Shown here: one piece after another, positions 4,280 through 50,216 of the stretch
Numbering within the stretch: position 1 is the first letter of the stretch
How the letters are laid out: each line of letters begins with the position of its first letter
Source: a bacterium
Lineage (GTDB): Bacteria > Patescibacteriota > Minisyncoccia > UBA6257 > JAGOQP01
DNA length: 64,000 bases
Direction: 5' to 3'
Assembly (NCBI GenBank): GCA_021814695.1
Contig: JAKAHY010000003.1
Coordinates: 20,692-84,691 of the forward strand
Notes under the pieces: model-generated
The model's database searches: none
The model's input: the letters and a program-made list of their open reading frames with translations, nothing else
Told to the model about the DNA's origin: nothing
Made by a program: the position numbers and the translations under genes

Positions 4280-5332
4280 ATGAGTTACGGATTATTTCTC
4301 GCTACGCTGATAGTTGTTCTTGGGGCCGCATTTGTAGCGGCGTACTTTTTGTTCGGAAAAAAGAACAAGGGAGAGGAAAAGACCCAGGATTCCGCCTTTC
4401 TTATGCTTCAAAATCAACTGAACGAAATAACGCGGGTTATGGACAGCAAATTGGGGGAATCACAGAAGGCCACAGTCAGCCAATTCCAGGAAAGTGCCAA
4501 AATAATCCGGGACGTGACCGAAAAATTAACCAAACTGGACGAGACCAACAAACAAGTTATAAATTTTGCCGACCAACTCAAGAATTTGCAGGATATTTTG
4601 AAAAATCCGAAACAGCGGGGAATTTTGGGAGAGTATTATTTGGAAACGGTTTTAAAAAATGTTTTTGCGCCCGGGCAATATCAGATGCAGTATGAGTTCA
4701 AGGATGGAGTGATTGTGGATGCCGTGGTATTTGTAAAGGATAAGATAGTTCCGATTGACTCAAAATTTAGCTTGGAAAATTACAACAGAATTTTGGAAAG
4801 CCGCACCGACGACGAGCGGGAAAGATATGAATCGGCATTTATCAGCGATTTGAAAACAAGAATAGACGAGACTTCCAAATACGTAAAACCCGAAGAGGGT
4901 ACGATGGAGTTTGCTTTCATGTTTATACCTTCCGAGGCCGTCTATTATGATTTGCTGATAAATAAAGTAGGAGCGCTTAAGGCCAATACGAGGGATCTAA
5001 TCGAATATGCCGCTCAAAAGAAAGTTATGGTTGTTTCGCCAACGACATTTCTGGCTTATTTGCAGACGGTTCTCCAGGGCCTTAAAGCAATGCAGATAGA
5101 AGAATCGGCAAAGGAAATCAGAAAAAGAGTTGAGGATTTAGGCAAACATCTGACGGCGTTTGATTCGTATATGGGAAAACTCGCCGGCCATCTGAGCACT
5201 ACCGTAAACACTTTCAATACTGCCCACAAAGAGCTTGGAAAAATAGATAAAGACGTTCTCAAGATAACCGGAGATTCGGGCGGAATAGAAATTAAGCAGA
5301 TTGAAAAGCCGACACTGTTTGACGAAGAATAA
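4280..5332 (+). CDS. rmuC: DNA recombination protein RmuC (short paralog, 350 aa)
   Basis: N-terminal TM helix, coiled-coil region, and the RmuC core FMFIPSEAVYYDLL...VMVVSPTTFLAYLQTV. Confidence 0.8.
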   Translation: MSYGLFLATLIVVLGAAFVAAYFLFGKKNKGEEKTQDSAFLMLQNQLNEITRVMDSKLGESQKATVSQFQESAKIIRDVTEKLTKLDETNKQVINFADQLKNLQDILKNPKQRGILGEYYLETVLKNVFAPGQYQMQYEFKDGVIVDAVVFVKDKIVPIDSKFSLENYNRILESRTDDERERYESAFISDLKTRIDETSKYVKPEEGTMEFAFMFIPSEAVYYDLLINKVGALKANTRDLIEYAAQKKVMVVSPTTFLAYLQTVLQGLKAMQIEESAKEIRKRVEDLGKHLTAFDSYMGKLAGHLSTTVNTFNTAHKELGKIDKDVLKITGDSGGIEIKQIEKPTLFDEE

Positions 5333-9736: not shown

Positions 9737-9761
9737 AATCCCGCTTAAAGCGGAAGGGTGC
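9737..9761 (+). repeat. 25-nt exact copy of the sequence spanning the tRNA-Ser 5' flank plus its first 10 nt (AATCCCGCTTAAAGCGGAAGGGTGC). The second copy is at 9948-9972
   Basis: Direct repeat seen in the sequence. Followed by a ~140-nt GC-rich segment (9762-9900) with long-range complementarity (CTGAAGCT / AGCTTCAG). Confidence 0.8.
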
Positions 9762-9962
9762 CCGCCTTGCGCCACCGCTGAAGCTAAGGCGGCACGTGGT
9801 CGCAAACCTCTTTCGCGTAAAGCTTCAGAGGTCACGGAATGCTACGGCGGGCAGGCAAGAGTTAGAGATGGAGAGTTCGCATAGTGGTCTAGTGCGCAAG
9901 ATTGTTCCCGATTTATCTGAAATTTTAAAAATGAAGTTATAAATCGCAATCCCGCTTAAAGC

Positions 9963-10049
9963 GGAAGGGTGCAGGAGTGGTTTAACTGGTGGTCCTGGAA
10001 AGACCATGTGCCAGAAATGGCACCGCGAGTTCGAATCTCGCCCCTTCCG
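9963..10049 (+). tRNA. tRNA-Ser (anticodon GGA), type II with a long variable arm, no encoded CCA
   Basis: Manual fold. Acceptor GGAAGGG/CCCUUCC, D-stem CAG/CUG, anticodon stem UGGUC/GACCA with loop CUGGAAA, variable stem GUGCC/GGCAC, T-arm GCGAG-UUCGAAU-CUCGC, discriminator G. Confidence 0.85.
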
Positions 10050-10053
10050 CTTT

Positions 10054-10141
10054 GTGCGGGAGAAAGCGTGTGTGGGGTAAAACCCACCGAGAGTTCGAAT
10101 CTCTCACCCTCCGCCATGTACGGGAGAAAGCGCGTGTCCCG
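10054..10141 (+). repeat. tRNA-like fragments: a ~60-nt acceptor/T-arm minihelix (…GAGAGUUCGAAUCUCUCACCCUCCGCCA) and a truncated second copy of its 5' 25 nt (10117-10141)
   Basis: Similarity to the tRNA-Ser 3' half (GAGTTCGAATCTC…CCTCCGC). Direct repeat TGTGCGGGAGAAAGCGTGTGTGGGG / TGTACGGGAGAAAGCGCGTGTCCCG. Confidence 0.6.
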
Positions 10142-10156: not shown

Positions 10157-10186
10157 GAATCCCTGCCTACCGGTAGGCAGGGATTC
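10157..10186. repeat. Perfect 30-nt palindrome GAATCCCTGCCTACCGGTAGGCAGGGATTC
   Basis: Direct reading. It lies at the distal end of the tRNA-fragment cluster. Confidence 0.8.
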
Positions 10187-12054: not shown

Positions 12055-13380
12055 TTAGCCGCCGATTACAACTTTGGAAATTCCGAATATATTCCTGACC
12101 GAATAGTGGTCGGAAAAACTTATATCTTTTCCATTTGCGATATACGGGTCGCGCATAAGATATTTTCCTCTACTGCCACTGACCAGAACGACAAAATGGG
12201 TTCCTCCATAAGCCTTAAGCCCGATAACGACAGGGTTGCCGGTTGAAAGCGTTGAATCGATTGCGGCGGTTTTACGCGTCACACTCACGCCGTCGACGTT
12301 GATGGTATACAAAAGATATGCCGGATAATAGACGGCAAAATTATCCGGATTGGAATTTATCGTCACGGGAGTAACGTCCCGATAATTATAGTGAGTCATT
12401 ATCATCGCCATAGATGTAACCAGACATCCGTCGCTGGCAAGATTAAATTGCGTTCCGTTGAGAGCGTTGCTGCCCCAAGCCATATCCCGCTGATTGTAAT
12501 AGCAGCCCCAAGCATCGCAGACGGTTTGATTGGGGAGTAGTTTTGAACCGCCGGCATTTTTGACGAAATCCGAAAAACTTTTTACCTGAGCTTCTGCGGC
12601 GGCGAGTAATTTTTGGTAATTCGATTCCTGAGCCTTTGTGTCGGCAAGCAACTGGTTTTTGGATTGGACTGTTGCGGCCAGAGATTTTTGCTGAAGCGCC
12701 AGAGATTTATTTTGCGCCGTAAGTGTGGCCTGTTTTTCCCTGGATGCAGCCTGAGAATTGGTCAGATCAACTTTCTGCGCTTTGAGGGAGCTGATATTGT
12801 CTTGGATGTCGTTTTCCAGCTGGATGTTGGCGTTGATGTCGTCCCAAATCTGGGAAATGGTATCGGATGATAACATTTGCATAAGTAACGATTGCCCGTC
12901 GGCTATTTGAAGGTTTCTCAAATATGCCCCAAGCGTTGTTCTGTTTGTGGCGATTGTTTTTTCCGTATCCACTATTTTCCCTCCCAACTGTTTAATTTGC
13001 AGTTGAGTCGTGTTTATCTGGCGTTGAGTCACCGATATCTGTGCCTCCACTTTTTTTCGCTGCAAGTCGAGAGTGTTAATTGCGGCCTGAAGCGTTTTTT
13101 TATCCGCTCCTATCTGCTGAAGTTTTACCTGATATTGTGCAATTTGCAGATTTAGGGTGGCTATCTGCTGATTATCGGCATCAATTTGAGCCTGAAGAGA
13201 GTTTGAATCCGGCGTCGCTGTTGTGGTTGCTGCCTGAACTGCCATCGATCCCCAAACGATAATGACATAAATAAAAACGGCAGTAAAAAGCGTGGCGAAT
13301 GTTATTTTGCGTGTTATGTGTGAATTCATCAGAGTTAAACCTATTCTATTCATTTTTCCCGATATTGGATGCTTCGTCAA
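12055..13380 (-). CDS. PcsB-like secreted coiled-coil protein with a C-terminal papain-like (C39-like/CHAP-like) peptidase domain. Putative cell-wall hydrolase
   Basis: N-terminal TM/signal, ~200 aa of Q/L-rich heptads, and a C-terminal Cys...His pair (GCLVTSMAMIMTHY ... GGTHFVVLVSG). Confidence 0.6.
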   Translation of the reverse strand: MTKHPISGKMNRIGLTLMNSHITRKITFATLFTAVFIYVIIVWGSMAVQAATTTATPDSNSLQAQIDADNQQIATLNLQIAQYQVKLQQIGADKKTLQAAINTLDLQRKKVEAQISVTQRQINTTQLQIKQLGGKIVDTEKTIATNRTTLGAYLRNLQIADGQSLLMQMLSSDTISQIWDDINANIQLENDIQDNISSLKAQKVDLTNSQAASREKQATLTAQNKSLALQQKSLAATVQSKNQLLADTKAQESNYQKLLAAAEAQVKSFSDFVKNAGGSKLLPNQTVCDAWGCYYNQRDMAWGSNALNGTQFNLASDGCLVTSMAMIMTHYNYRDVTPVTINSNPDNFAVYYPAYLLYTINVDGVSVTRKTAAIDSTLSTGNPVVIGLKAYGGTHFVVLVSGSRGKYLMRDPYIANGKDISFSDHYSVRNIFGISKVVIGG

Positions 13381-16006: not shown

Positions 16007-17752
16007 ATGAGCTGGATAAAAAGCACCGCCGGTCTGGTTTGGAGTAAGGCAATAGCGCATAAATTTATAGCATTTATCATTATCGTCGCTGTTGTCGGCG
16101 GAGGATACTACGAATACAAACATTTAACTGCGGGAACGGTGACGACTCAGTATGTTACTTCGGCCGCGGAGAAAGGAACTCTTGTTGTTTCTGTTTCGGG
16201 AAGCGGCCAGGTTTCGGCTTCCAATCAGACCAATATTCAGGCGCAGGTGTCGGGAATAGTTTCCAGCGTTCCGGTAACCGATAACCAGAAAGTTAAAGCC
16301 GGACAAATCCTTGTGATCTTGGATACGACAAATGACGAAAGGGCTGTCCGCAATGCGCAATCCAGTTTGGAAAATGCGCAACTGGCATTACAAACTCTTT
16401 TACAGCCGCCAAGTACGTCTACATTGCTTCAATCCCAGCAATCAGTGGTTCAATCCCAGCAGTCTCTTCAGAACGGACAAAATAGTCTAGCTTCGGATTA
16501 TACGAGCGCTTACGCCGACGTCTCGAATGTTTTTATTGACCTTTCCGGGGTCATGGCCGGACTGAATAATGTTTTGTACAGTACGAGCATTAACAAAATT
16601 CAGGCCAATGTTGACGCGTACACAAATCTGATAGCCGATATCAATGCCAATGCCACTCAATATCATGACAGCGCCATATCCGGATATCAGGCAGCCTATG
16701 CCGCATACAATCAGGCTTTGGCGGATTATAAAAACTCGAGTATAAACTCCAGCACTTCAACAATAGAATCTTTACTCTCCGAAACATACGGTACGCTCAA
16801 AATAGTTTCTACCGCCAACAGCAATGTCAAAAATTTGCTGGACTTGGTCAACACAACTTTGCAGCAGCAGGGGAATTTAAAAATTCCGGCTCAGTTGAAT
16901 GTGGACGAAACGAGCATGCAGTCTTATATCTCGACGACAAATAATCATCTCCAGACAATTTTACAGATTCAAAATTCTATTCAATCCGATAAGCAGGCGA
17001 TAACCATCGGACAAATTTCGGTAAAACAAACAGCCGCAGCTCTTGAACAGCTTCAGAGCGGACCGACTCAGCTTCAGATTCAAACTCAGAAATTGTCGGT
17101 GACTCAGGCGCAAAATGCGCTCTCGGACGCAAAAGAAAATCTTAACAACGATTATGTTAGGGCTCCTTTTGACGGAATTATTACCGACATAACCGCCCGC
17201 GTGGGACAGCCGGCAAGTGGTACTCTGGCGGTTCTTGTCAGCAATGCTCAGCTGGCTCAGGCGACCCTCAACGAAGTGGACGTGGTTAATGTTAAAGTCG
17301 GCCAGCAGGCGACCGTGACTTTTGATGCTCTTCCGGATATGACGCTTACGGGAAAAGTATCCGAAGTTGATACTATAGGCACCGTTGTCCAGGGAGTTGT
17401 GAGTTATAACGTTCAGGTAGCGTTGGACGTTTCGAATGATCAAGTCAGGCCGGGGATGAGTGATACTTTGGCGATAATTACCAATGTAAAACAGGATGTT
17501 CTGCTTGTTCCCAATGCCGCAATCAGCACCAAGAGTGACGCCTCATATGTCCAGGTTTTGGGCGCGGATGGATTGCCGACACAGGTGGAAGTAACGACCG
17601 GATTGGCAAACGATACCCAAACCGAAATTCTTTCGGGAATTAATGAGGGAGACAAAGTCGTAACCAGAACAATTACATCAACCGCAACGACCCCGACAAC
17701 GCAATCTTCGGGCGGGTTGGGCGGAATTAGAATTCCGGGAATCGGGCGATAA
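16007..17752 (+). CDS. HlyD/MacA-family periplasmic adaptor (membrane fusion protein), with long coiled-coil
   Basis: N-terminal TM, lipoyl/biotinyl-like motifs (VSGIVSSVPVTDNQKVKAGQILVILD; YVRAPFDGIITDITARVGQ). Confidence 0.82.
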   Translation: MSWIKSTAGLVWSKAIAHKFIAFIIIVAVVGGGYYEYKHLTAGTVTTQYVTSAAEKGTLVVSVSGSGQVSASNQTNIQAQVSGIVSSVPVTDNQKVKAGQILVILDTTNDERAVRNAQSSLENAQLALQTLLQPPSTSTLLQSQQSVVQSQQSLQNGQNSLASDYTSAYADVSNVFIDLSGVMAGLNNVLYSTSINKIQANVDAYTNLIADINANATQYHDSAISGYQAAYAAYNQALADYKNSSINSSTSTIESLLSETYGTLKIVSTANSNVKNLLDLVNTTLQQQGNLKIPAQLNVDETSMQSYISTTNNHLQTILQIQNSIQSDKQAITIGQISVKQTAAALEQLQSGPTQLQIQTQKLSVTQAQNALSDAKENLNNDYVRAPFDGIITDITARVGQPASGTLAVLVSNAQLAQATLNEVDVVNVKVGQQATVTFDALPDMTLTGKVSEVDTIGTVVQGVVSYNVQVALDVSNDQVRPGMSDTLAIITNVKQDVLLVPNAAISTKSDASYVQVLGADGLPTQVEVTTGLANDTQTEILSGINEGDKVVTRTITSTATTPTTQSSGGLGGIRIPGIGR

Positions 17753-17756
17753 AAAT

Positions 17757-18473
17757 ATGATTGAACTTAAAGGCGTAAATAAAGTTTATAAAACCGGAGA
17801 CGTAGAAACGTGGGCCTTAAAAGATATTTCATTCAAAGTGAATGACGGAGAATTTATTTCCATTATGGGGCCTTCGGGTTCGGGAAAATCAACGCTGATG
17901 CACATCATCGGAGCGTTGGATACTCCCACAAGCGGCGAGTATCTTCTGGACGGCAAGGATGTTTCCAAAATGGCCGACGACGAGTTGGCCGATATCCGAA
18001 ACGATAAAATCGGATTTGTTTTTCAGCAGTTTAATCTTTTACCAAGAATCACGGTTTTTCGTAACGTTATGCTTCCGCTTATATATGCCGGGACTCCAAA
18101 AGAAGCGCGCGAAGAATCGGCGCGTAAAGCTTTGATTTCGGCCGCGTTGCCGGAAAATTGGTGGACTCATCATTCCAACCAGCTTTCGGGAGGACAGATG
18201 CAACGTGTGGCTATTGCCAGAGCATTGGTCAATAATCCGACGATAATTTTAGCCGATGAGCCGACGGGAAATTTGGATTCCAAAACCGGAGAAATAGTTT
18301 TAGGCACATTTCAGAAACTTCACGAACAGGGGCGCACAATAGTTTTGATTACCCACGAACTTTATGTTGCCGAACACGCCGAGAGAATCATTCACATTGT
18401 TGACGGCCAGGTAAAATCCGACAGCAAGAGCCATCCCCGAAGAAAAATATCAATGAAAGATTACAAAGATTAA
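17757..18473 (+). CDS. ABC transporter ATP-binding protein (MacB/LolD type)
   Basis: [36 protein letters not shown]. Confidence 0.93.
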
Positions 18474-18482
18474 CACCCAAAT

Positions 18483-19706
18483 ATGGAAATATCGGAATTA
18501 TTACAAGAAGCATTTTCAGCCGTGACGCTCAATAAGGCGCGCTCGGGTTTGACGATTTTGGGTATAGTCATCGGAATCGGTTCGGTTATTGCCATGATCT
18601 CCATCGGCCAGGGGGCTCAGGGTTCCATTACTTCAAGTATTCAATCTATCGGCTCCAATCTTATTTTGATTACGCCCGGATTTCAGCGGACTCCCGGAAG
18701 CCAGGTGAGCGCCGGCCGCGGGAGTGCCGAAACTTTGCGTCAGGAAGACGCCGACGCCATCGCCAACCAGGTATCAATGATACAAGCAGTTGCTCCCGAA
18801 ATAACCCGTCGCTATCAGATTACGGCATTGGGTAAAAACACGAATACCTCCGTTGTCGGAACCGTTTCCAGTTATCCGGAAGTAAGAAACATTCAGATAG
18901 ATTTGGGAAATTTTATTACCGACCAAAACGTAAAGGACGGTTCCAAAGTGGCCGTGCTGGGTCCGACTACCCGGGACGATCTTTTCGGTACCGGCGTGGA
19001 CCCAACGGGAAAAACCATCCGTATTAATAATATAAATTTCCAGGTGGTCGGAGTTACCGTAGCTAAAGGTGGAAGCGGATTTGGGAGCCAGGATGATATG
19101 ATATTTGTTCCGATTTCAACGGCTCAAAGATATTTGGAAGGGGATACTTATGTAACCACAATCAGCGTCGAGGCGCAGGATGCGCAATCGATGACTCAAG
19201 TTCAGGATCAGATAACCAGCCTGCTTTTGGAAAGGCATCATATTTCCGATCCGACTCTGGCGGATTTTCAGGTATTAAACCAAACCGATATTCTTTCGAC
19301 GGCATCGACCATTACCAATACCTTCACTATTCTCTTGGCTTCAATTGCAGGAATTTCTTTGATTGTCGGAGGTATCGGAATCATGAATATGATGCTCACA
19401 ACCGTTACCGAGAGAACGCGTGAAATAGGATTAAGAAAAGCCATCGGCGCCAAGAAGCGGGATATCAGCACTCAGTTTCTGATAGAGTCGGTGATGCTGA
19501 CTTTCTTGGGTGGTATAGTGGGAATTATATTAGGCTGGATGCTTTCAATGCTGGTAACTTATTTTGCGGGTATTACCACGAGTATTTCCTGGTGGTCAAT
19601 TCTGCTGGCATTTGGAGTGTCGGCCGGAATCGGAATCGTATTCGGATATTATCCGGCCCGTCGTGCGGCCTCTCTTAATCCGATAGAAGCTTTGAGATAC
19701 GAATAA
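18483..19706 (+). CDS. ABC transporter permease, MacB/FtsX family
   Basis: MacB_PCD-like periplasmic domain plus a C-terminal FtsX 4-TM segment. Confidence 0.88.
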   Translation: MEISELLQEAFSAVTLNKARSGLTILGIVIGIGSVIAMISIGQGAQGSITSSIQSIGSNLILITPGFQRTPGSQVSAGRGSAETLRQEDADAIANQVSMIQAVAPEITRRYQITALGKNTNTSVVGTVSSYPEVRNIQIDLGNFITDQNVKDGSKVAVLGPTTRDDLFGTGVDPTGKTIRINNINFQVVGVTVAKGGSGFGSQDDMIFVPISTAQRYLEGDTYVTTISVEAQDAQSMTQVQDQITSLLLERHHISDPTLADFQVLNQTDILSTASTITNTFTILLASIAGISLIVGGIGIMNMMLTTVTERTREIGLRKAIGAKKRDISTQFLIESVMLTFLGGIVGIILGWMLSMLVTYFAGITTSISWWSILLAFGVSAGIGIVFGYYPARRAASLNPIEALRYE

Positions 19707-19734: not shown

Positions 19735-20178
19735 ATGAATAACAAAAAAGATATGAAAAAAATGTTGCCAATGGCAATAGTGGCAGTCGTCGCTTTGGTA
19801 GCGGGATATTTTGCGGGCGCGCATTTCGGTTCGGGCACTCAGCCTTCGAGCACAAGAAATTTCGGCAATTATCAGCAAGCCGGAGGCGCTGCTGCCGGTA
19901 GAAGAGTCGGAGCAGTCGGTGCGGGTTTTGTCCGCGGAAACATCATTTCCAAAAACGATACCAGCATAACCATCCAACAGCCGGACGGAAGTTCCAAAAT
20001 AATATTATTTTCCGCTTCTACGCCGGTTATGAAATCGGTAACGGGAAGCTCCACTGATCTATCCACGGGACAGGAAGCAACAGTCATCGGAACGACAAAT
20101 TCCGACGGCAGTGTAACGGCGCAATCGATTCAATTGGGACAACAAAGGCCGCAAATTCAAACTCAAACAAATCAATGA
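19735..20178 (+). CDS. Secreted DUF5666-like domain protein
   Basis: Signal/TM plus VRGNIISKNDTSITIQQPDGSS...GQEATVIGTTNSDGSVTAQSI. Confidence 0.55.
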   Translation: MNNKKDMKKMLPMAIVAVVALVAGYFAGAHFGSGTQPSSTRNFGNYQQAGGAAAGRRVGAVGAGFVRGNIISKNDTSITIQQPDGSSKIILFSASTPVMKSVTGSSTDLSTGQEATVIGTTNSDGSVTAQSIQLGQQRPQIQTQTNQ

Positions 20179-20594
20179 AAAAATACATAATCACTACGGT
20201 TTCGATTATCGCCGCCGTAGCATTGTTGGTGGTGGGTTATTTTGTCTTTGTAGGAATGTCTGGAAAAACAGTTTCCACAACTCCCGGAGCCAAACTTTCC
20301 GACCAACCTTACGCTAAATTCGCTTATTTAGTTTCGGGCGACACGTTAAGTCCCGAGGCTCAAACCGCACTTGCCGGATTTACCGTCCAAAAACAACCGG
20401 CGTCCGATGGGGGAACGGATATCACTTTAAAATCAACTCAGGCCGGCGGACAGGACCTGCAATATCATTTACAGAAAGGCCAGCAACTATATTTCGTTGA
20501 GACCAGTATGGGAGACGATCAGGGCAATCAGGAATATGGGATGTACGACGATAAAGGAGTGATAACGGATGCCAACGGATATATAGTTCAATAA
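20175..20594 (+). CDS. Hypothetical secreted protein (139 aa)
   Basis: N-terminal TM/signal. Start overlaps the upstream stop. Confidence 0.45.
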   Translation: MKKYIITTVSIIAAVALLVVGYFVFVGMSGKTVSTTPGAKLSDQPYAKFAYLVSGDTLSPEAQTALAGFTVQKQPASDGGTDITLKSTQAGGQDLQYHLQKGQQLYFVETSMGDDQGNQEYGMYDDKGVITDANGYIVQ

Positions 20595-20713
20595 GCGGTG
20601 GGGAAAATGGGGCTATGGCCTCATTTTTTATATCGGCAGCAGTAACAAAATAAAATAAACGATAAAAGCATTTGACAAACGAATAAAATAATGATATAAA
20701 AAACCTACTGGAG

Positions 20714-20932
20714 GTGTTCTTGAAAGACCAAGCTTCGTGTCCGCGACTCGCTCAGGCAGAACCGTCCACCGAAGGTGGCAAAGCGCTGATCGATTGCATC
20801 GGTCCGTCCGAGAAGTGCTCGGACTGTCCGCTCCGTGACAGCGACTGCCAGATCGCCTGGTTCGGGCAGGAGCCCGACAGGTTCAACAGTTTCCAGCGCC
20901 GTCGGGCGCTCAAGGATCTTCTGGGGGATTAG
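20714..20932 (+). CDS. High-GC small Cys-containing protein (~70 aa; GTG at 20714 or TTG at 20720)
   Basis: Promoter TTGACA-17-TATAAA, RBS GGAGG, terminator CCAGGCGTCGCCTGG plus T7. Five Cys (CPRL...C...C..C...C). Confidence 0.5.
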   Translation: MFLKDQASCPRLAQAEPSTEGGKALIDCIGPSEKCSDCPLRDSDCQIAWFGQEPDRFNSFQRRRALKDLLGD

Positions 20933-21043
20933 CTCTTTATATGTTATTTGTTCGTGCCAGGCGTCGCCTGGTATTTTTTTACGTTTTTTCTTGATTTTAA
21001 ATTTGTTTTGGCTAAACTACAGGCAGTTCTCATTGGAGGGGAA

Positions 21044-21298
21044 ATGTCGAGACCGACGAATACTAAAACGGTATCATTGAAAATCAGGCATCTTCTGATC
21101 TTTGTTATTATGGTCGGGTTGATTCCAACAATTATGATGATGGGAGTTTTGCTAGGAAGTTTCTATCTGGCGGAACTCTTGAAGTTGTATTTGCTGGCCC
21201 CGATTGGTGTTTTTCTGGGCTTGATGATTATTTTACCCGTATCATTTAAGGGGAATGATTTGTTTAGAAAGTGGTATCCGCAGTATTTTACCGACTGA
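21044..21298 (+). CDS. Small membrane protein (start chosen at the ATG after GGAGGGG; the ORF track starts at 20948)
   Basis: Two or three hydrophobic helices. Confidence 0.45.
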   Translation: MSRPTNTKTVSLKIRHLLIFVIMVGLIPTIMMMGVLLGSFYLAELLKLYLLAPIGVFLGLMIILPVSFKGNDLFRKWYPQYFTD

Positions 21299-22679: not shown

Positions 22680-22741
22680 CGAGGGGTTGTTTTTTGGGAA
22701 ATTTTGTTTAGAATATCAGCAGTTCTTAATGGGAGGGTAAA

Positions 22742-23113
22742 ATGATGTCCCCTGAAAAGGAAAAAGCACTTGAAGATAAGTATCTGTTTTTTCGACCCGT
22801 CTGGGGAGTGGAATGCGGTGATGGCTGGTTTGGAATTATTGACGAGCTGTGCGCTAAACTTTCAAGGATGGATTTGAGTGGCGCAAGAATAGAATTTATC
22901 AAAGAAAAATTTGGTGGCATGAGAGTCGGACTTTCTCACGTCGGAGGGAAAAACTATGGAGACGCACTTTCTATTATTGAGTATGCCTACGATAGAAGCA
23001 TGGAGACATGCGAGGAATGCGGACGGCCCGGCATCTTGAGGGACATTAAGGGATGGTTTAAGACGTTGTGTGACGGATGTTTTGCCAAGACATTGAGTCG
23101 GTCGAATGAATGA
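22742..23113 (+). CDS. Hypothetical protein (123 aa) with a C-terminal CxxC…CxxC motif
   Basis: RBS GGGAGGG. CEECGRPG…CDGC. The stop overlaps the start of the next small ORF (ATGAATGA). Confidence 0.55.
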   Translation: MMSPEKEKALEDKYLFFRPVWGVECGDGWFGIIDELCAKLSRMDLSGARIEFIKEKFGGMRVGLSHVGGKNYGDALSIIEYAYDRSMETCEECGRPGILRDIKGWFKTLCDGCFAKTLSRSNE

Positions 23114-23255
23114 AATCAAAGTAGCAAATGCTATTTTACCGGAAGAGTTGAACCTCGCCGACGACGACAATTGTTGCCCGGCCTGGTCGGGACCAATTTC
23201 CGAATCACCGGATAAACCGATACGAGATGAATGTTGTGATGATGACGACGACTAA
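23106..23255 (+). CDS. 49-aa strongly acidic CC-motif peptide (MNEIKVANAILPEELNLADDDNCCPAWSGPISESPDKPIRDECCDDDDD), translationally coupled to 22742..23113
   Basis: ATG overlaps the upstream stop. Clean intrinsic terminator AAGACGACTTAAAGTCGTCTT plus T7 directly after. Below the ORF-track size cutoff. Confidence 0.45.
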   Translation: MNEIKVANAILPEELNLADDDNCCPAWSGPISESPDKPIRDECCDDDDD

Positions 23256-23338
23256 AACCAAAAGACGACTTAAAGTCGTCTTATTTTTTTATCTTGTTAA
23301 AAATAAAATTAAAATGCCATAAATGGCAGGGATTTTTT

Positions 23339-23580
23339 GTCACCCCTTTAATCGTAAAAGAGTGGCGCCAAAACTATTATATTTTTTATCTATGAAGAGA
23401 TGGTGGATATTTTGCTACTTTTTGGGTCGGCAAAAAGTAGCGCAAAAACCGACAGGCTTTTGCAAATCTTATAATTAATTTATTTCGTTTGGGCTTCTGT
23501 CCAAAACTCAACCTCATTACATTCGGGATTTAAACAGTTGGACAGATTGCTTTGCAACCGCCCTCACTCGCATAAATTAA
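23339..23580 (+). repeat. Repeat element copy 1 (hairpin CACCCCTTTA…AAAAGAGTGG followed by a ~200-nt conserved tail with CTGTCCAAAACTC…TTGGACAG)
   Basis: Alignable to 24705-24880 and partly to 49845-50040. Confidence 0.65.
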
Positions 23581-24229: not shown

Positions 24230-24313
24230 CTACTTCCCGTTGGAAGAGTTGGCCTCCTCGATGAGGGGATCGAAGAAGCTGTTGAGTGCGTCGTCGAAGG
24301 TATCGAATTCCAT
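24230..24313 (-). CDS. 27-aa acidic peptide (MEFDTFDDALNSFFDPLIEEANSSNGK)
   Basis: Promoter TTGACA-16/17-TATACT, RBS AAAGGAGG 6 nt from ATG, intrinsic terminator GGCCCAACTC-TTCG-GAGATGGGCC plus T7. Confidence 0.45.
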   Translation of the reverse strand: MEFDTFDDALNSFFDPLIEEANSSNGK

Positions 24314-24704
24314 TTCCGGCCTCCTTTTGAAGTTCTAAACTGTTTAAAGTATAGCATAAAATTAAGATTTGTCAATAAGGTGTGATTAATTACTATTAAC
24401 TGTTTACTATTAACTGATTACTTGTTATCATTCAATTACAACTTAATAGAAGTTATCAAGAGTGGCGGGGAGGGAATTGGCCCCATGATCCGCCCAGCAA
24501 CTTGTCTTAGGTCTCGACGCTTAGGATAAAGTGCTAAATCCAATCCCCGAAGGCGTACTCGTCCTGAGCTCGCCGAAGGAGAGAGATAAGGTAGGTCGAT
24601 TTTTAATGCCTTTAAACTCTTTCCTTCTCGGGAGAGAGTTTTTCTTTGCCTCGTCGAAGCTTTAGCGAAGGCGGGTATTTATTATCCTTTCGGGCAATGG
24701 CTGT

Positions 24705-24880
24705 TTGCCACCCTTTTGACCGCAAAAGGGTGGCGTCTAAAACTCCCAGGCTTAACATATGCTTATAATTCAGTCGATTCGCGCTTCGCTCCTGTCCACA
24801 ACTCGCTTCGCTCAAACAAGTGGACAGCAAAACAGCTCGCGCTCATCTGACTGGATTAAATAAGCATATGTGGCCTGGCC
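24705..24880 (+). repeat. Repeat element copy 2 (hairpin CCACCCTTTTG-ACCG-CAAAAGGGTGG plus conserved tail CTGTCCACAACTC…GTGGACAG)
   Basis: Direct-orientation partner of copy 1. Compensatory changes preserve the stem. Confidence 0.65.
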
Positions 24881-26221: not shown

Positions 26222-29200
26222 ATGCCCCAAAAGATCTCAGATTATATAACCGAGGTATCAGATAAATATAAAACTGGCCGTGCCGGAGAGCATGCTTATA
26301 GGCCCACTTTTGAAAAGCTCATTAAGTCGATAGATCCAAAACTTTCGATCATTAACGATCCGAAACGTACAGAACACGGAGCGCCTGATTTTATATTTGT
26401 AAGGGGAGACTTGATAGCGGGCTATGTTGAGACAAAAGATATAGATGAGGATCTTGATAAGACTGAAAAATCAGAACAGATAGAAAGATATTTAGGTTAT
26501 TCAAATCTAATTCTCACTAATTATCTCGAATTTCGTTTTTTTAGAAACGGAGAACATTATGGCGAGCATATTATTATAGGGAAGATAATTGACGGAGTCG
26601 TTAAAATTCAAGAAGATCAGATCAGTTCTTTGGAAGATGTTATTTTTGATTTTTTATCTGCTAAGCCAGAAGCTATAAAAAGTGGAATTCGTCTGGCAAA
26701 AATTATGGGAGGTAAGGCGCGCCGTATAAGAGATAGCGTAAAACAATTTCTGACTAAAGAATCGGAAGATAATCAAGAACTCTCGCGCGTTTACGAAACA
26801 ATAAAAAAACTTCTGGTTCACGATTTAACTTCCGAATCATTTGCGGATATGTACGCTCAGACTCTTGTTTATGGGCTTTTTGTGGCTCGTTATTATGACG
26901 AATCTCCGGATAATTTTACGCGTCAAGAAGCGCGTGATCTTATACCGGCATCAAATCCATTTCTGCGTCATTTCTTTGACCATATTGCTGGTCCGGATTT
27001 TGATAAACGATTAGCTTATATAGTAAATGAACTTTGTGAGGTTTTCTCGGTCGCGGATGTTCAAGTTCTCATGAGTCAGTATTTTAAGCAAGAGGATTTG
27101 TGGGGGAAGATACATAAAGGCCCTGATCCGGTTATCCATTTTTATGAGGATTTTTTAAAAGAATATGATTCTGAATTGCGTAAAAAAATGGGAGCATTTT
27201 ATACTCCATTACCAGTTGTAGATTTTATTGTCCGGTCAGTTGATTATCTCCTCAAAAAAGAGTTTAACTTATCCGGGGGCCTTGCTGATGCTACTAAGAC
27301 AGGGTTAGTGCACAAAGTTCAAATTCTTGATCCAGCCGTAGGGACGGGAACATTTATTAGTGAAATTATTCGTACTATCTATCAAAGTTTTTCTGGGCAA
27401 GAAGGACGTTGGCCGACTTATGTTTATCATGATCTTTTGCCTCGTTTACATGGCTTTGAATTAATGATGGCGCCTTACACCATTGCCCACCTTAAATTTA
27501 GTATGATGTTAAAGGAGACGGGTTTTAAACACTTTAACAATAGTAGGCTTGGTATCTATCTGACAAATTCTCTAGAGAATGGAGACGCTCAAGATAGTTT
27601 ATTTACAGGATTTGGTTTTGCCGAGAGTATTGCGGAGGAATCCAAAGAGGCGTCAAAAATCAAGAATGAAAAACCAATCATGGTTGTTGTTGGTAACCCG
27701 CCATATAGCATTAGCTCCTCGAATAAGGGTGAGTGGATTCTAAATCTTATTAAAGACTACAAAAAAGACTTGGGCGAAAGAAAAATTAATCTAGATGATG
27801 ACTATATAAAATTTATTCGTTTTGCAGAACATTTTATAGAAAAAAATGGAAGTGGTATTGTAGCTATGATAACCAATAATTCATTTATTGATGGAATTAC
27901 TCATCGTCAAATGAGGAAGCATTTATTGGAAACATTCGACAATGTTTATATTCTTAATTTGCACGGCAATTCTAAGAAAAAAGAAAAGTGTCCAGACGGT
28001 AGTAAAGATGAGAATGTTTTTGATATTCAACAAGGCGTATCTATTTCAATTTTTGTAAGAAAAGAAGGCAAAAAACAAGAATTAGGAAAAGTATTCCACT
28101 CTGAATTATACGGCAGACGTCAAGATAAGTTTGAGAAACTTAATTCTTTTGATTTAGAAAACATAAAATGGCAAAGACTTAATACCATAGAGCCTTATTA
28201 TTTCTTTATCCCAAAAGATTTTAGTTTGAGTGATTCTTATGATAACTTTTTCTCTATAACAGATCTGTTCAAAATTTATTCAGCAGGGATAAAAACTAAA
28301 GTTGATAACATATCAATAGACTTTGAAAGAGAATCACTCGGGAAAAGAGTTGAAGACATACTTACAAATAAATATTCATTGCAAGAAGTCATTAAAAAAT
28401 TTAGCTTGAATCCAAAAACTACCTGGGAATACAACAATGTTCTGAGGGCGAGTTTTAACGATAAAGTTTTGTCTTTCTATGATTATAGGCCGTTTGATAG
28501 AAGATTTATCTACTATGATAAAAATTTTCTTTCCAGAAGTAGATCGCAAGTAATGGATAATTTTTTTAATAAAGATAATATAGGCTTAGAAACTTCACGT
28601 ATGGGTGATTACATTTTTATTTCTAAAAATATTTCAGACGAGCATTTTGTTTCAGATAATTCATTTAAATTTCCACTTTATCTGTACCTAGATAATGGTC
28701 AGCAAATATCCAATCTTAAAAATGAGATCGTGGGAAAAATTACAGGAATTACTGGCAAAGCAGCTCCCATAGATATTCTTGATTATATTTATGCAGTCCT
28801 CCATTCGCCTAATTATAGAAAAAAATATGAGGAATTTTTAAAAATTGACTTCCCGCGGATACCATATCCAAAAGACAGAAAAACCTTTGAGAAATTAGTG
28901 AGTTTTGGAAAAGAGTTGAGAGAACTGCATCTTTTAGAATCTACAAAGCTTAAAAACTTTATCACGACATTTCCAGAATCAGAAAGTGATCTCGTTGAGT
29001 CAAAATATCCAAAATATAAGGATGGGAATGTTTATATAAATAGTACTCAATATTTTGGTAATGTTTCAGAAGTTATCTGGAATTTCTACATAGGAGGATA
29101 TCAACCTGCTCAAAAATGGCTTAAAGATCGCCAAGGCCGAAAACTTTCAAATGAAGACATTGAACACTATCAAAAGATGATTGTAGCTTTGATGGAGACA

Positions 29201-29242
29201 GACGGGGTTATAAAAGAAATTGATAAAATTTATGTTCAATAA
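26222..29242 (+). CDS. Type IIG restriction-modification enzyme (MmeI-like PD-(D/E)XK endonuclease fused to a gamma-class N6-adenine methyltransferase and a target-recognition region)
   Basis: N-terminal PD…ExK (APDFIF…GYVETKD), MTase motif I (ILDPAVGTGTF), motif IV (VVVGNPPYS). 1006 aa. Confidence 0.8.
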   Translation: MPQKISDYITEVSDKYKTGRAGEHAYRPTFEKLIKSIDPKLSIINDPKRTEHGAPDFIFVRGDLIAGYVETKDIDEDLDKTEKSEQIERYLGYSNLILTNYLEFRFFRNGEHYGEHIIIGKIIDGVVKIQEDQISSLEDVIFDFLSAKPEAIKSGIRLAKIMGGKARRIRDSVKQFLTKESEDNQELSRVYETIKKLLVHDLTSESFADMYAQTLVYGLFVARYYDESPDNFTRQEARDLIPASNPFLRHFFDHIAGPDFDKRLAYIVNELCEVFSVADVQVLMSQYFKQEDLWGKIHKGPDPVIHFYEDFLKEYDSELRKKMGAFYTPLPVVDFIVRSVDYLLKKEFNLSGGLADATKTGLVHKVQILDPAVGTGTFISEIIRTIYQSFSGQEGRWPTYVYHDLLPRLHGFELMMAPYTIAHLKFSMMLKETGFKHFNNSRLGIYLTNSLENGDAQDSLFTGFGFAESIAEESKEASKIKNEKPIMVVVGNPPYSISSSNKGEWILNLIKDYKKDLGERKINLDDDYIKFIRFAEHFIEKNGSGIVAMITNNSFIDGITHRQMRKHLLETFDNVYILNLHGNSKKKEKCPDGSKDENVFDIQQGVSISIFVRKEGKKQELGKVFHSELYGRRQDKFEKLNSFDLENIKWQRLNTIEPYYFFIPKDFSLSDSYDNFFSITDLFKIYSAGIKTKVDNISIDFERESLGKRVEDILTNKYSLQEVIKKFSLNPKTTWEYNNVLRASFNDKVLSFYDYRPFDRRFIYYDKNFLSRSRSQVMDNFFNKDNIGLETSRMGDYIFISKNISDEHFVSDNSFKFPLYLYLDNGQQISNLKNEIVGKITGITGKAAPIDILDYIYAVLHSPNYRKKYEEFLKIDFPRIPYPKDRKTFEKLVSFGKELRELHLLESTKLKNFITTFPESESDLVESKYPKYKDGNVYINSTQYFGNVSEVIWNFYIGGYQPAQKWLKDRQGRKLSNEDIEHYQKMIVALMETDGVIKEIDKIYVQ

Positions 29243-29294
29243 AATAAAAATAATATAAATTTTAAATAAGTTTTGATGATGGTACGATAATTTT

Positions 29295-31454
29295 ATGAAA
29301 AAAATACAATTAAAATTAGCAAATTGCTACGGAATTAAGAAATTAGAAAGAGATTTTGATTTTTCGAATAACGGTACTTATGTAATTTATGCTCCCAATG
29401 GAGTTATGAAAACTTCATTTGCGAAGACATTTAAAGACTTAAGTTTAGGATTAAATTCTAAAGATTTGATTTTTCCAGAAATAGAGACGATCCGTGAGAT
29501 TAATAAAGAGAACAATACTAATTTGTCTAAAGAGGAAGTTTTTGTTGTAGAGCCATATAATGAGGATTTTAATTCAGAAAAAATATCTACCCTTTTGGTT
29601 AATAAAGAATTGAAAGGCAGATATGATAAAATCCATTTAAAAATTGATGAAGAAAAGAGCGGGTTACTAAAAGAATTAAAAAACTTATCTGGATTTCGAG
29701 ATGATATCGAAGAAGAAATTTCTCAAGCTTTTACAAGTGAGGACGATAGATTATTTGATTCTCTAGAAAGGGTGGAAAAAGAAGTTATGGATATTTCAGA
29801 ACCTGTGTATTCTGATATTTCTTATAAAGAGATTTTCAATGAAAAGGTTCTAAATTTTCTGATGACTAAGGATTTCAAAGAAAAAATTGAGCAATATATT
29901 AAAAAATATGACGAATTAATTGAAAGTTCAAAATATTTTAAAAAAGGTATATTTAATCATAATAATGCATCAGTTATAGCCAAGAGTTTAGTAGATAATG
30001 GTTTCTTTAAAGCACAACATTCCATTTCTTTAAATACAAGAGAAAGTAAAAATGAAATTTACACCAAAGAAGAACTTGAAAAAGTCATTGATGAAGAAAA
30101 AAACGCTATATTGAATAACCCTGATTTGGTGAAAGTTTTTGAAGAGTTGGACAGCAAATTAAAAGCTAATAAAGAATTGCGTGATTTCAGAGATTATTTG
30201 TTAAATAATCCAAAAATTTTACCAGAACTGAAAAATCTTGATAGTTTTCGACAAAAATTATGGGTATCCTATTTTAAGAGTCAAAAAGATTTATACGAGA
30301 GTTTCTTAAAGGAATACCATTCTGGAAAAAGTGAATTGGACAAAATAATAGAACAAGCTAAAACAGAAGCAACGCACTGGATGGATGTGATAGACATCTT
30401 TAATGAAAGGTTTTCAGTTCCGTTTAAGCTTAGTATAAAAAATCAGGGTGATGTTATTTTAAAACGAGATGTTCCTAGTATCGCTTTTATATTTAAAGAT
30501 TCAAATGGCGAAGTTCCTGTAGAAAAATTAAATTTACTCCAAGTATTAAGTAGCGGAGAGAAACGTGCTCTGTATATCTTAAACATAATTTTTGAAGTTC
30601 AAGCAAGAAAAGAAGAAAATCAGGAAACCCTATTTATTATTGATGATATAGCAGATTCTTTTGACTATAAAAATAAATACGCGATTGTTGAATATTTGAA
30701 AGATATTTCGGAAGAAACAAATTTTTATCAAATAATTTTAACTCATAACTTCGATTTTTTTAGAACCGTTCAGAGCAGGTTTGTTCCTTATGATAATTGT
30801 TTAATGGTTGAAAAAACAACTGAAGAATTAAAAATAGTAAAAGCAGATTATATAAAAAATCCATTCAAATACTGGATGAATCATTTAGATGATGATAAAA
30901 AATTAATAGCATCAATTCCGTTTGTAAGAAATCTTATTGAATACACAAAAGACACAAACGATGATGATTTTTTGAAATTAACATCATTATTACACGTTAA
31001 ATCAAATTCCGATTCTATTTTTAAAAGCGATTTACAAAATATTTATAAAAGTATATTTCCTAACTTATCACTAACCTTAATAGGTAAAGATGAAAAGGTT
31101 ATTAATTTAATTTTTAATTTAGCAGATACCTGTTTAACTGCGACCGTAGGCATAAATCTAGAAAATAAGATTCTTCTTTCTATTGCTATTAGATTGGTAG
31201 CGGAAAAATTTATTTTAAGTAAGATAACTGATAAAAGTGAGATTGTCGGAAAACAAACAAGGAAACTTTTTGAAAGATTTAGAAATGAATTTAATAAAGA
31301 TAATTTTGAACAAGAAAATATTAAAATACTAGAGCAAGTTAATCTTATGACTCCAGAAAATATACACTTTAATTCATTTATGTATGAGCCTATTTTAGAT
31401 ATGTCGGATGATCATTTGAAAAACTTATATAACGAAGTGAAAAAATTAAAATAA
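29295..31454 (+). CDS. SMC/OLD-like ABC ATPase (719 aa) with a degenerate Walker A and a ~390-aa helical insert between Walker A and the signature motif
   Basis: The N-terminus follows the OLD/AAA_21 pattern (MKKIQLKLANCYGIKKLE…YAPNGVMKTSFAKT). Signature LSSGEKRALYIL, Walker B/D-loop LFIIDDIADSFD, H-loop ILTHN. Confidence 0.65.
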   Translation: MKKIQLKLANCYGIKKLERDFDFSNNGTYVIYAPNGVMKTSFAKTFKDLSLGLNSKDLIFPEIETIREINKENNTNLSKEEVFVVEPYNEDFNSEKISTLLVNKELKGRYDKIHLKIDEEKSGLLKELKNLSGFRDDIEEEISQAFTSEDDRLFDSLERVEKEVMDISEPVYSDISYKEIFNEKVLNFLMTKDFKEKIEQYIKKYDELIESSKYFKKGIFNHNNASVIAKSLVDNGFFKAQHSISLNTRESKNEIYTKEELEKVIDEEKNAILNNPDLVKVFEELDSKLKANKELRDFRDYLLNNPKILPELKNLDSFRQKLWVSYFKSQKDLYESFLKEYHSGKSELDKIIEQAKTEATHWMDVIDIFNERFSVPFKLSIKNQGDVILKRDVPSIAFIFKDSNGEVPVEKLNLLQVLSSGEKRALYILNIIFEVQARKEENQETLFIIDDIADSFDYKNKYAIVEYLKDISEETNFYQIILTHNFDFFRTVQSRFVPYDNCLMVEKTTEELKIVKADYIKNPFKYWMNHLDDDKKLIASIPFVRNLIEYTKDTNDDDFLKLTSLLHVKSNSDSIFKSDLQNIYKSIFPNLSLTLIGKDEKVINLIFNLADTCLTATVGINLENKILLSIAIRLVAEKFILSKITDKSEIVGKQTRKLFERFRNEFNKDNFEQENIKILEQVNLMTPENIHFNSFMYEPILDMSDDHLKNLYNEVKKLK

Positions 31455-31470
31455 ATAATTAAAAGATTTT

Positions 31471-32880
31471 ATGACCATAATGATTTTACTAATAATAAAT
31501 ACTTTTGGAATCGCTCTTTTGACATTTCTGTTTTTTAAGAATAAACAATCTGATAATGCCGGCCAAATAACAAAAGCTGTTGAGATTTTATTTGATAGAA
31601 TGGATAAGGCTTTTAAGGAAGAAATGTCTCTAAATAGAAAAGAGTCGGCAGACTCAGAAAAAAGATTACGCGAAGAAATTTCTAGCTCATTTAAGGGATT
31701 TGGAGATTCGCTTGATAAAAGAATGTCCGAACTTGCTAGTACTCAAAATAAGAATTTTGAAGGATTTTCTATAAAACTTACAGAATTAATTGATAAGAAT
31801 GATACAAAAATAGAAAAAGTCAGAGAAACAGTTGAAAGAAAGCTTGAAAATATACAAAAAGACAACGGCGAAAAATTAGAAATGATGAGGCAGACAGTAG
31901 ACGAGAAGCTCCAATCTACCTTAGAGAAGAGACTGGGAGAATCATTCAGGCAAGTAAGCGACAAACTGGATTCTGTCCATGTCGGGCTTGGAGAAATGAG
32001 AAATCTGGCGTCTGACGTTGGTGGTCTAAAAAAAGTTTTAACAAATGTAAAAACACGCGGTATCTGGGGTGAGGCACAACTGGGTGCTTTACTGGACCAG
32101 GTATTATCTCCGGAACAGTATGCAAGTAACGTTGCAGTTAAGCGTGATGGCAGAGAAAGAGTAGAATATGCTATCAAATTACCAGGCACTAAAGAAGACG
32201 GAAGTGATCCCGTGTGGTTGCCTATAGATTCAAAATTTCCTCAAGAAGATTATGATCGTCTAATTAGCGCATACGAACAAGCAGATGCCAATGCAATTGA
32301 TGTAGCGTCTAAACAACTGGAGCTTAGGATTCGCAATGAAGCCAAAAGTATCAACGAAAAATATATTGATCCACCCAATACAACAGATTTTGCCATATTA
32401 TTTTTACCATATGAAAGTTTATATGCAGAGGTTATTAGGCGCCCCGGTCTCTGCGAAACAATTCAAAGAAGCTACAGGGTTACAATAACGTGTCCGTCAA
32501 CATTGGGTGCTTTATTAACCAGTCTTCAAATGGGATTTAAAACTCTTGCTATACAAAAGAGATCAAGTGAAGTGTGGGAAGTGCTCGGAGCAGTAAAAAC
32601 GCAATTTGGTAAATTTTCTAACTTGCTCGAAAAAACTCAAAGACAATTGAAAACCGTAGCTGGTACAATTGAAGAAGCTACTAAAAAAACCAAGACAATT
32701 GAGGGTAAACTAAGAAAAGTACAACAATTACCAGAATCTTTATCAATTAAGGTACTAAAAGGAGTGGAAGAGTTGGAAAATAGCCAGGAGGATGCAGAAG
32801 GAATAGAAAAGACGTCAATTTCTGAGACGCAAGAAGATTTTTCAGATAAAGAGATTAGATCAGAAGACCTACCGTTTTAG
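31471..32880 (+). CDS. rmuC: DNA recombination protein RmuC, second full-length paralog (469 aa)
   Basis: TM helix, coiled coil, RmuC core DFAILFLPYESLYAEVIRRPGL…RVTITCPSTLGALLTSLQMGF. Confidence 0.85.
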   Translation: MTIMILLIINTFGIALLTFLFFKNKQSDNAGQITKAVEILFDRMDKAFKEEMSLNRKESADSEKRLREEISSSFKGFGDSLDKRMSELASTQNKNFEGFSIKLTELIDKNDTKIEKVRETVERKLENIQKDNGEKLEMMRQTVDEKLQSTLEKRLGESFRQVSDKLDSVHVGLGEMRNLASDVGGLKKVLTNVKTRGIWGEAQLGALLDQVLSPEQYASNVAVKRDGRERVEYAIKLPGTKEDGSDPVWLPIDSKFPQEDYDRLISAYEQADANAIDVASKQLELRIRNEAKSINEKYIDPPNTTDFAILFLPYESLYAEVIRRPGLCETIQRSYRVTITCPSTLGALLTSLQMGFKTLAIQKRSSEVWEVLGAVKTQFGKFSNLLEKTQRQLKTVAGTIEEATKKTKTIEGKLRKVQQLPESLSIKVLKGVEELENSQEDAEGIEKTSISETQEDFSDKEIRSEDLPF

Positions 32881-43040: not shown

Positions 43041-43049
43041 TTTCGCAGC

Positions 43050-45014: not shown

Positions 45015-45034
45015 AAACTCCGTTTTTTGTTATC

Positions 45035-45185: not shown

Positions 45186-45191
45186 CTCCGT

Positions 45192-46755: not shown

Positions 46756-46784
46756 TTGACAATTATATTTATATATGATATACT
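46756..46784 (+). promoter_or_regulatory. Consensus sigma70 promoter TTGACA-17-(TGa)TATACT driving the GC-rich RNA
   Basis: Direct reading. Confidence 0.65.
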
Positions 46785-46790
46785 AACATC

Positions 46791-47720: not shown

Positions 47721-47728
47721 AATAAAAT

Positions 47729-50209: not shown

Positions 50210-50216
50210 GCACTCG

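Follow-up and report, generated by a model that had tools for sequence, protein, structure and literature searches.

In a 64,000-nucleotide stretch of DNA from an uncultured bacterium (contig JAKAHY010000003.1 of GenBank assembly GCA_021814695.1, positions 20,692 to 84,691 of the forward strand), here called the window, a small GC-rich gene near position 20,720 encodes a protein with four conserved cysteines, referred to below as the Cys4 protein. The current work shows that its open reading frame (ORF) is protein-coding and under purifying selection, and that the gene is a genuine stand-alone, monocistronic unit with a near-consensus sigma-70 promoter. As a small stand-alone gene it is nothing out of the ordinary; the protein family that it encodes is an orphan one, confined to a single narrow lineage of uncultured bacteria. 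Judged from its sequence, the product is probably a small cytoplasmic protein that binds Zn2+ or an iron-sulfur (Fe-S) cluster through its cysteines and possibly serves as an adaptor or regulator that responds to metal or redox state.

Among 5.8 billion proteins, a word-indexed search returned an identical sequence (P0001) and two homologues, and a three-sequence HMMER profile recovered two more among 1.84 billion representatives. A second profile search gave no further homologue. Scanning metagenomes brought in a single additional locus, almost the same as P0004. In all, five related protein clusters were found, the homologues P0002 to P0005 standing beside P0001; the five sequences have 63-72 amino acids and share 37-68% identity with the window protein. 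The corresponding loci come from an NCBI metagenome-assembled genome (L001, GCA_021833485.1), from ENA and JGI metagenomes (L002, L004, L005 and L006) and from a Logan assembly that matches the window exactly (L003), and one homologue originates from groundwater at a legacy waste-trench site (ENA PRJEB14718). No relative was detected in 185,579 species-representative genomes, by a single-protein scan or by a profile scan, nor in viral contigs, phage genomes and plasmids. The flanking genes of all these loci have counterparts in the window (65-82% DNA identity), which places the loci in one narrow clade. Its gene content, with DUF5666 and many membrane-anchored orphan proteins, would suit an affiliation with the Patescibacteria. 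The result contributes one more small-protein family that is conserved but lacks annotation and has a clear Cys4 signature, from uncultured bacteria about which little is known.

The coding nature of the gene is apparent from the way in which these loci differ. When all six frames were compared, frame +1 contained no stop codon in any of five loci, while every other frame was interrupted in at least two of them. Substitution rates were estimated by the Nei-Gojobori method for the three closest pairs: the nonsynonymous rate (dN), the synonymous rate (dS) and their ratio were 0.32, 1.18 and 0.27 for the window and L001, 0.32, 1.11 and 0.29 for the window and L002, and 0.34, 1.60 and 0.21 for L004 and L005. 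In the DNA alignment, changes fall mostly at third codon positions, and insertions and deletions are multiples of three. The preliminary description of this DNA had proposed a stand-alone gene for a cysteine-rich protein of about 70 residues, had asked for conserved relatives, and had named an equally open alternative frame in a gene with no homologs as the contrary case. Relatives were found, the proposed frame alone stays open in all of them, and the dN/dS values of 0.21-0.29, together with the codon composition described below, support the gene as proposed.

That the locus is instead a GC-rich small RNA, with an open frame as a mere by-product of composition, is extremely unlikely. GC-rich DNA does leave several frames open, as seen in antisense frame -1, which is stop-free in the window and in L002 (it is interrupted in the other three loci), and two other GC-rich islands of the window look like structured RNAs. 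Against this stand the single frame shared by all five loci, the substitution and indel patterns, invariant residues that turn out to be cysteines at fixed spacing, and a strong Shine-Dalgarno box at the correct distance from the start codon. The predicted fold of the transcript is also not unusual (z = -1.58, against -6.4 and -4.6 in the two RNA-like islands), and the RNA-structure reading of the locus was rejected on this value. No Rfam 15 match was obtained for the locus at gathering thresholds in a search of the whole window, and at E <= 10 the interval 20500-21100 yielded only noise with E > 1.

Read from the sequence in the 5' to 3' direction, the interval 20640-20990 presents an AT-rich stretch, the promoter, a GGAGG box, a TTG start codon, the ORF, a TAG stop codon (20930-20932), and a hairpin followed by seven T residues (coordinates in Table 1). 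The pattern TTGACA-N16-18-TAWAAW occurs twice in the 64 kb, compared with 0.23 occurrences expected by chance; the general promoter scan demands T as the last base of the -10 element and thus did not list the TATAAA site of this gene. The leader is very short, about 13 nucleotides, and carries the strong Shine-Dalgarno box. The GTG at 20714, taken as the start by the ORF tool, overlaps this box, and in the alignment the L002 homologue has an ATG opposite TTG 20720, so that this TTG is regarded as the start codon. The terminator hairpin, GUGCCAGGC-GUC-GCCUGGUAU at 20954-20974 followed by U7, has a folding energy of -13.8 kcal/mol (z = -3.9), and none of 200 shuffled sequences was equally stable.

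These signals are maintained together with the gene. A promoter of the form TTGACA-17-TG-n-TATAA[AT] is kept in every homologous locus (L001, L002, L004 and L005 among them), as is a Shine-Dalgarno box of GGAGG or AGGAGG, and the L002 gene ends with the same terminator hairpin (CCAGGCGATGCCTGG and T7). All of the expression signals listed in the preliminary description, a TTGACA-17-TATAAA promoter, a GGAGG box, a GTG or TTG start and a hairpin-T7 terminator, are present, with TTG as the start; they had been assigned to 20640-20940, and the terminator extends just past this interval. From the signals alone, the gene is probably strongly transcribed. The earlier suggestion of very high expression agrees with the signals and finds no parallel in codon usage: GroEL, encoded in the same window, has a GC content at third codon positions (GC3) of only 0.42, and the high GC3 of the Cys4 gene is thus not the ordinary bias of highly expressed genes in this genome.

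The position of the gene is less constant than its signals. It had been described as lying downstream of an efflux operon, and this HlyD/ABC/MacB-FtsX operon is real, with two small genes in between. In L002, L004, L005 and L006, the cassette of promoter and gene is located directly 3' of a terminator-ended small-RNA-like element, homologous to window 45030-45215, which itself comes after a HlyD/ABC/MacB operon; this operon is the counterpart of the second one in the window, whereas the window cassette follows the first. In L004 and L006, the cassette precedes rhodanese and cupin genes; the window has genes of these two kinds at 47187-47480 and about 47721-48111. The window counterpart of this slot holds ITPase-like and metzincin-like genes, and the window cassette lies 24 kb away from it, after the paralogous operon and the two small membrane-protein genes. 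In L001, the cassette is found between homologues of window 22738-23288 and 23377-23509 and adjoins no transporter. Three genomic positions were observed in total (the window; L001; the other four loci), with the block of promoter, ribosome-binding site and gene kept and the flanks different. Promoter and gene thus act together as a self-contained unit, and linkage to the efflux operon is frequent, not obligatory.

The GC content of the ORF is 0.61-0.62, lower than the figure of about 65% first reported, against 0.415 for the window and 0.42-0.47 for typical window genes; by codon position it is 0.62, 0.49 and 0.72. The protein was recoded 5000 times with the codon usage of 34 ordinary window ORFs. 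This predicted a GC content of 0.518 +/- 0.021 (observed 0.618) and a GC3 of 0.48 +/- 0.057 (observed 0.71), the latter observation being reached in none of the 5000 simulations. Comparison of codon usage and GC3, recommended in the preliminary description, thus places the GC3 of this gene far above the prediction from the window. About half of the GC excess is due to amino-acid composition (Ala, Gly, Pro, Arg, Asp and Cys) and about half to synonymous choice. The excess in GC3 is smaller in L001 (0.63), L004 (0.59) and L002 (0.55), and absent in L005 (0.46).

Lateral acquisition of a GC-rich cassette would explain both the odd composition and a position unlike that in most relatives. The GC3 of 0.71 where 0.48 +/- 0.06 is expected, the displacement of the window locus from the slot after the small-RNA-like element in four relatives, the occupation of that ancestral slot by ITPase-like and metzincin-like genes, and the presence of other GC3-rich small ORFs in the window all agree with such an event, which we nevertheless consider rather unlikely. 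All known homologues come from close relatives with flanks of 65-82% DNA identity; the gene has kept its promoter, its ribosome-binding site and, in L002, its terminator; the genomes, phages, plasmids and viral contigs searched offer no candidate high-GC donor; and the amino-acid composition already explains about half of the excess. At most, the cassette would have been passed on within the clade, by a relative somewhat richer in GC. Orthologues that carry these regulatory signals were found in relatives and nowhere else, which makes a distant high-GC donor unlikely; the lateral acquisition that the preliminary description held possible is, in the form of a transfer from such a donor, left unsupported. 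The synonymous enrichment may instead reflect within-clade exchange of the cassette or selection on mRNA properties.

The product has 70 amino acids and a mass of 7.8 kDa and is hydrophilic, without a signal peptide or a membrane segment. Across the family, the grand average of hydropathy is -0.4 to -0.8 and the isoelectric point 4.5-7.6 (acidic to neutral), and no hydrophobic segment is present. The window protein does contain the five cysteines first described (C7, C26, C33, C36 and C43), of which only the last four are conserved; C7 is not shared by the aligned homologues. The core C26-x6-C33-x2-C36-x6-C43 corresponds to a family spacing of C-x6/7-C-x2-C-x6-C, and in the alignment of the five sequences (A3) these four cysteines are invariant down to 37-40% identity. 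The invariant residues also include A22, G28, S30, R61, L64 and L68. The core carries the signatures CIGxS and CxxCP[LF], then an aromatic residue, and the residues after the last cysteine are AWFG, AWFG, AYLG, VWEA and VWET in the five members. The N-terminal 20 residues or so are variable, while a C-terminal amphipathic helix, at about residues 56-67, is conserved (F-x-RR-x-ALKDLLGD).

Four invariant cysteines at fixed spacing in a soluble protein of 60-70 residues are most simply accounted for by a single metal centre. In the mechanism proposed here, the four cysteines would ligate one Zn2+ ion or Fe-S cluster, the metal centre would fold the small domain, and the C-terminal helix would contact a partner, so that the protein could act as a small metal- or redox-dependent adaptor or regulator. 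Small proteins of such a kind often prove to be regulators or adaptors. We infer the metal binding, the cytoplasmic location and the regulatory role of the Cys4 protein from the features given above. If an Fe-S cluster is bound, the protein could be a redox sensor, of which few can be recognised in such reduced genomes.

Several observations weigh against this reading. No family in Pfam, NCBIfam or PHROGs was matched by the protein, a search of PDB with a sequence profile gave chance matches only (ribosomal protein S12, E ~1), and no literature match pointed to any function. The AlphaFold2 model of the window protein, built from a shallow alignment, has a mean predicted local distance difference test score (pLDDT) of 48 and is unusable; that of P0004 reaches 61, a low confidence, and shows short helical segments near the cysteines and one long helix at the C-terminus. 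Foldseek comparison of the P0004 model with PDB gave nothing below E = 4.9. The protein has one CxxC knuckle (C33-x2-C36) and two single cysteines, and is therefore not a classical zinc ribbon. The four cysteines could also form two disulfides in an exported peptide, and the family is tiny, five clusters, with few sequences behind its conservation statistics. The sole Pfam match was a sub-threshold one to FhuF_C, covering 9 residues (E = 0.24; 11.7 bits against a cut-off of 20.5). The ferredoxin motif CxxCxxCxxxCP is absent, no Fer4 model was matched, and none of the zinc-ribbon models of Pfam was matched by the five members.

An exported cysteine-rich peptide could be a bacteriocin, a signalling peptide or the precursor of a ribosomally synthesised and post-translationally modified peptide (RiPP). 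It would leave the cell through the neighbouring HlyD/ABC/MacB-type exporter, its variable N-terminal leader being cut after the Gly-Gly at residues 19-20 and its core disulfide-bonded or cross-linked. The gene is indeed downstream of such an operon in the window, and in L004 and L006 it follows the paralogous one. The sequence varies at the N-terminus and is conserved towards the C-terminus, and three of the five members (the window protein, P0002 and P0005) have GG ahead of the core. In addition, 12055-13380, at a distance of 7 kb, encodes a Peptidase_C39_2-like protein. This account is unlikely all the same. The GG becomes ND in P0003 and NG in P0004, the adjoining transporters are MacB-type without a C39 peptidase domain, and no radical S-adenosylmethionine, LanM, YcaO or other maturase gene occurs in any locus examined. 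Relatives have a separately transcribed, terminator-ended small-RNA-like element between the operon and the gene, and the L001 gene is next to no transporter at all. Moreover, the acidic to neutral, very hydrophilic product with its charged terminal helix is unlike pore-forming bacteriocins. We rate export as weaker still than the lead discussed next.

The cysteine motif also recalls the WhiB-like (Wbl) proteins, in which four cysteines hold a [4Fe-4S] cluster and the protein, a sensor of redox state or nitric oxide (NO), binds the principal sigma factor. Wbl proteins have the cysteine spacing C-X(14-30)-C-X2-C-X5-C. A profile centred on WhiB1 was assembled from database proteins carrying PF02467 and one phage WhiB, and in this aligned set the cysteines follow C9...C37-x2-C40-x5-C46. 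Using hhalign, the family profile matched that of WhiB1 with a score of 20.8 and P = 0.0023, a value uncorrected for the thousands of families possible, the WhiB comparison having been picked after the motif was seen. The match aligns C33-x2-C36-P...C43 and AWFG with C-x2-C-P-V...C and VWGG of WhiB, an R-R-x-A-L-K stretch follows in both, and none of 300 column-shuffled family profiles reached 20.8 (maximum 19.9). A distant Wbl protein, which would be a special case of the metal-centre reading, is, however, highly improbable. The hhalign probability is only 12.5%; PF02467 was not matched by any of the five members in hmmscan of Pfam, even at E <= 10; the first cysteine stands 6-7 residues before the CxxC, compared with 27 in the WhiB1 set; the last spacing is x6, not x5; and the GVWGG turn is replaced by AWFG, AYLG, VWEA or VWET. 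Foldseek of the P0004 model returned no Wbl structure, and a weak tblastn match in Gordonia phage Jumbo (E = 4) falls in a hypothetical gene beside whiB, not in whiB itself. Membership of the Wbl family was rejected on the PF02467 result and the misfit of the cysteine spacings and the turn. That the family is a miniature and very remote relative of Wbl, or its functional analogue, outside Actinobacteria is a shade less probable again; it would then be a [4Fe-4S] redox or NO sensor docking on the housekeeping sigma factor, encoded by a relocatable cassette of promoter and gene, in AT-rich uncultured bacteria that may belong to the Patescibacteria. Window 61681-62916 encodes the RpoD of this organism. 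The idea that the protein works like a Wbl is kept as a low-probability lead. A small cytoplasmic Cys4 metal-binding protein is still the reading that we favour.

The preliminary description saw the Cys4 gene and those at 2149, 23731 and 24230 as one recurring pattern of short GC-rich genes with consensus signals. The islands are real, and three of them are GC3-rich, coding-like ORFs; the pattern as a whole is mixed and includes at least two structured-RNA candidates. For each of the ORFs at 2149, 23731, 24230 and 40241, none of 5000 simulations reached the observed GC3, and GC2 is normal. The coding-like ORF at 2149-2607 has promoter-like and terminator-like signals. None of these small ORFs matched Pfam, NCBIfam or PHROG families, and the ORF of 107 amino acids had no tblastn match in phages or plasmids. 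GC3 enrichment common to several strongly promoted small genes may point to mRNA selection or within-clade exchange.

The islands at 46795-47120 and 50216-50986 lack a coding signature, fold far better than shuffled sequences and are probably structured RNAs. The former contains no convincing ORF, lies 5' of a rhodanese gene (47187-47480) and has a minimum free energy of -143 kcal/mol, compared with -107 +/- 5.7 for shuffled sequences (z = -6.4). A shorter GC-rich counterpart of 46756-47120 is found at the same place in L004 and L006, and no Rfam match was obtained for it. The latter contains a long minus-strand ORF that is not coding-like, with a flat GC of 0.59, 0.59 and 0.58 over the codon positions, and has a fold z of -4.6. 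The promoter of the unit at 50182-50986 is the only other perfect one in the window besides that of the Cys4 gene; a core of about 150 nucleotides (about 50500-50650) is conserved in L006 at 4600-4800, and Rfam gave no match even at E <= 10. The small-RNA candidate at 45030-45215 comprises a DnaA-box-like TTATCCACAG, then a TTGACn-17-TAnAAT promoter, and then a transcript of about 135 nucleotides with an intrinsic terminator. With 66-80% identity in L002, L004, L005 and L006, this element is better conserved than the adjoining genes; RNAalifold of four sequences gives a three-way structure with 8 covarying pairs, and Rfam holds no match. The window provides a clean example of how, in an AT-rich genome, small ORFs and structured RNAs that are both GC-rich can be told apart, with frame conservation, dN/dS and expected versus observed GC3 as useful discriminators for coding and the fold z-score for RNA.

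Traces of rearrangement are also present in the window. Within 9737-10135 on the plus strand, the sequence just upstream of the tRNA-Ser(GGA) gene (9963-10050) occurs a second time further 5' (aatcccgcttaaagcggaagggtgc), where it leads into a GC-rich non-tRNA stretch (9756-9911), and the gene is followed by two partial copies of a tRNA 3' end (GAGTTCGAATCTC...). These repeats look like scars of integration at a tRNA gene. A palindromic repeat, TCCCTGCCTACCGGTAGGCAGGGA at 10157-10186, is part of an element of about 180 nucleotides that occurs twice in L001 (1537-1716 and 2873-3064) and also matches window 24704-24753; it may be a repeat resembling a miniature inverted-repeat transposable element, in a region rearranged between the window and L001. 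After the SAM-I riboswitch, the next plus-strand ORFs of at least 60 amino acids begin at 24969 (67 amino acids) and 25217 (321 amino acids). The low-GC island at 26222-32880 is probably an acquired defence island.

Table 1. Coordinates of the Cys4 gene, its signals and other features of the window
Feature	Position	Strand	Remarks
Sigma-70-type promoter	20672..20700	+	AT-rich 20640-20671 upstream
-35 element TTGACA	20672-20677	+	perfect; 17-nt spacer to -10
-10 element TATAAA	20695-20700	+	extended -10 by TG at 20692-20693 (TGaTATAAA)
Shine-Dalgarno box GGAGG	20710-20714	+	5 nt ahead of start codon
Cys4 coding sequence	20720..20932	+	70 codons, TTG start, TAG stop; product MKDQASCPRLAQAEPSTEGGKALIDCIGPSEKCSDCPLRDSDCQIAWFGQEPDRFNSFQRRRALKDLLGD; from ORF listing
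Intrinsic terminator	20954..20981	+	9-bp GC-rich stem, 3-nt loop, T7; terminator scan and folding
HlyD/ABC/MacB-FtsX operon	16007-19706		upstream of Cys4 gene
Two small membrane-anchored protein genes	19735-20594		between efflux operon and Cys4 gene
Second, paralogous HlyD/ABC ATPase/MacB-FtsX operon	41475-45014		same 64-kb window
Small-RNA candidate	45030-45215	+	just 3' of operon 41475-45014; conserved, non-coding
GC3-rich small ORF	2149-2607	-	GC3 0.84-0.85
GC3-rich small ORF, 107 aa	23731-24054	-	GC3 0.83-0.84; consensus-like promoter and terminator in flanks
GC3-rich small ORF	24230-24313	-	GC3 0.81-0.82; consensus-like promoter and terminator in flanks
GC3-rich small ORF	40241-40855	+	GC3 0.63
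Structured-RNA candidate	46756-47120	+	~325 nt, GC ~0.6; TTGACA...TATACT promoter, strong terminator
Possible large non-coding RNA	50182-50986	+	~770 nt, GC 0.59; TTGACA-16-TATAAT promoter, terminator
SAM-I riboswitch	24450-24592	+	49.2 bits, above gathering threshold; then terminator-like hairpin
Low-GC island	26222-32880	+	GC 0.27-0.37; type ISP restriction-modification enzyme (1006 aa) and two large ORFs

Three known systems come closest to the Cys4 family. With double-glycine-leader peptides and RiPP precursors it shares a short lone ORF near an ABC exporter, a variable N-terminus and a cysteine-rich conserved C-terminal part; the Cys4 loci, however, lack C39-peptidase ABC transporters and maturases, the GG is unconserved, not every locus has the pump nearby, and the protein itself is hydrophilic, with an acidic character. 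The Wbl proteins of Actinobacteria and actinophages (PF02467) are similar in being cytoplasmic, 60-110 amino acids long and equipped with four cysteines, including C-x2-C-P and a further cysteine, after which come an aromatic-Gly element and an Arg-rich helix (RRxALK). They differ in their hosts, the Cys4 family occurring in uncultured AT-rich bacteria, and in the C-terminus, which is basic in Wbl and acidic (DLLGD) in the Cys4 family. Small Cys4 zinc proteins, such as zinc ribbons and the C4-type fingers of DksA, NrdR and YacG, have the same size, four cysteines and a hydrophilic cytoplasmic character. In these proteins two CxxC knuckles are located 10-20 residues apart, whereas the Cys4 family has one CxxC flanked symmetrically by single cysteines at -7/-8 and +7. 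The most economical role for the cysteines of the Cys4 family would be the metal-dependent folding of a mini-domain.

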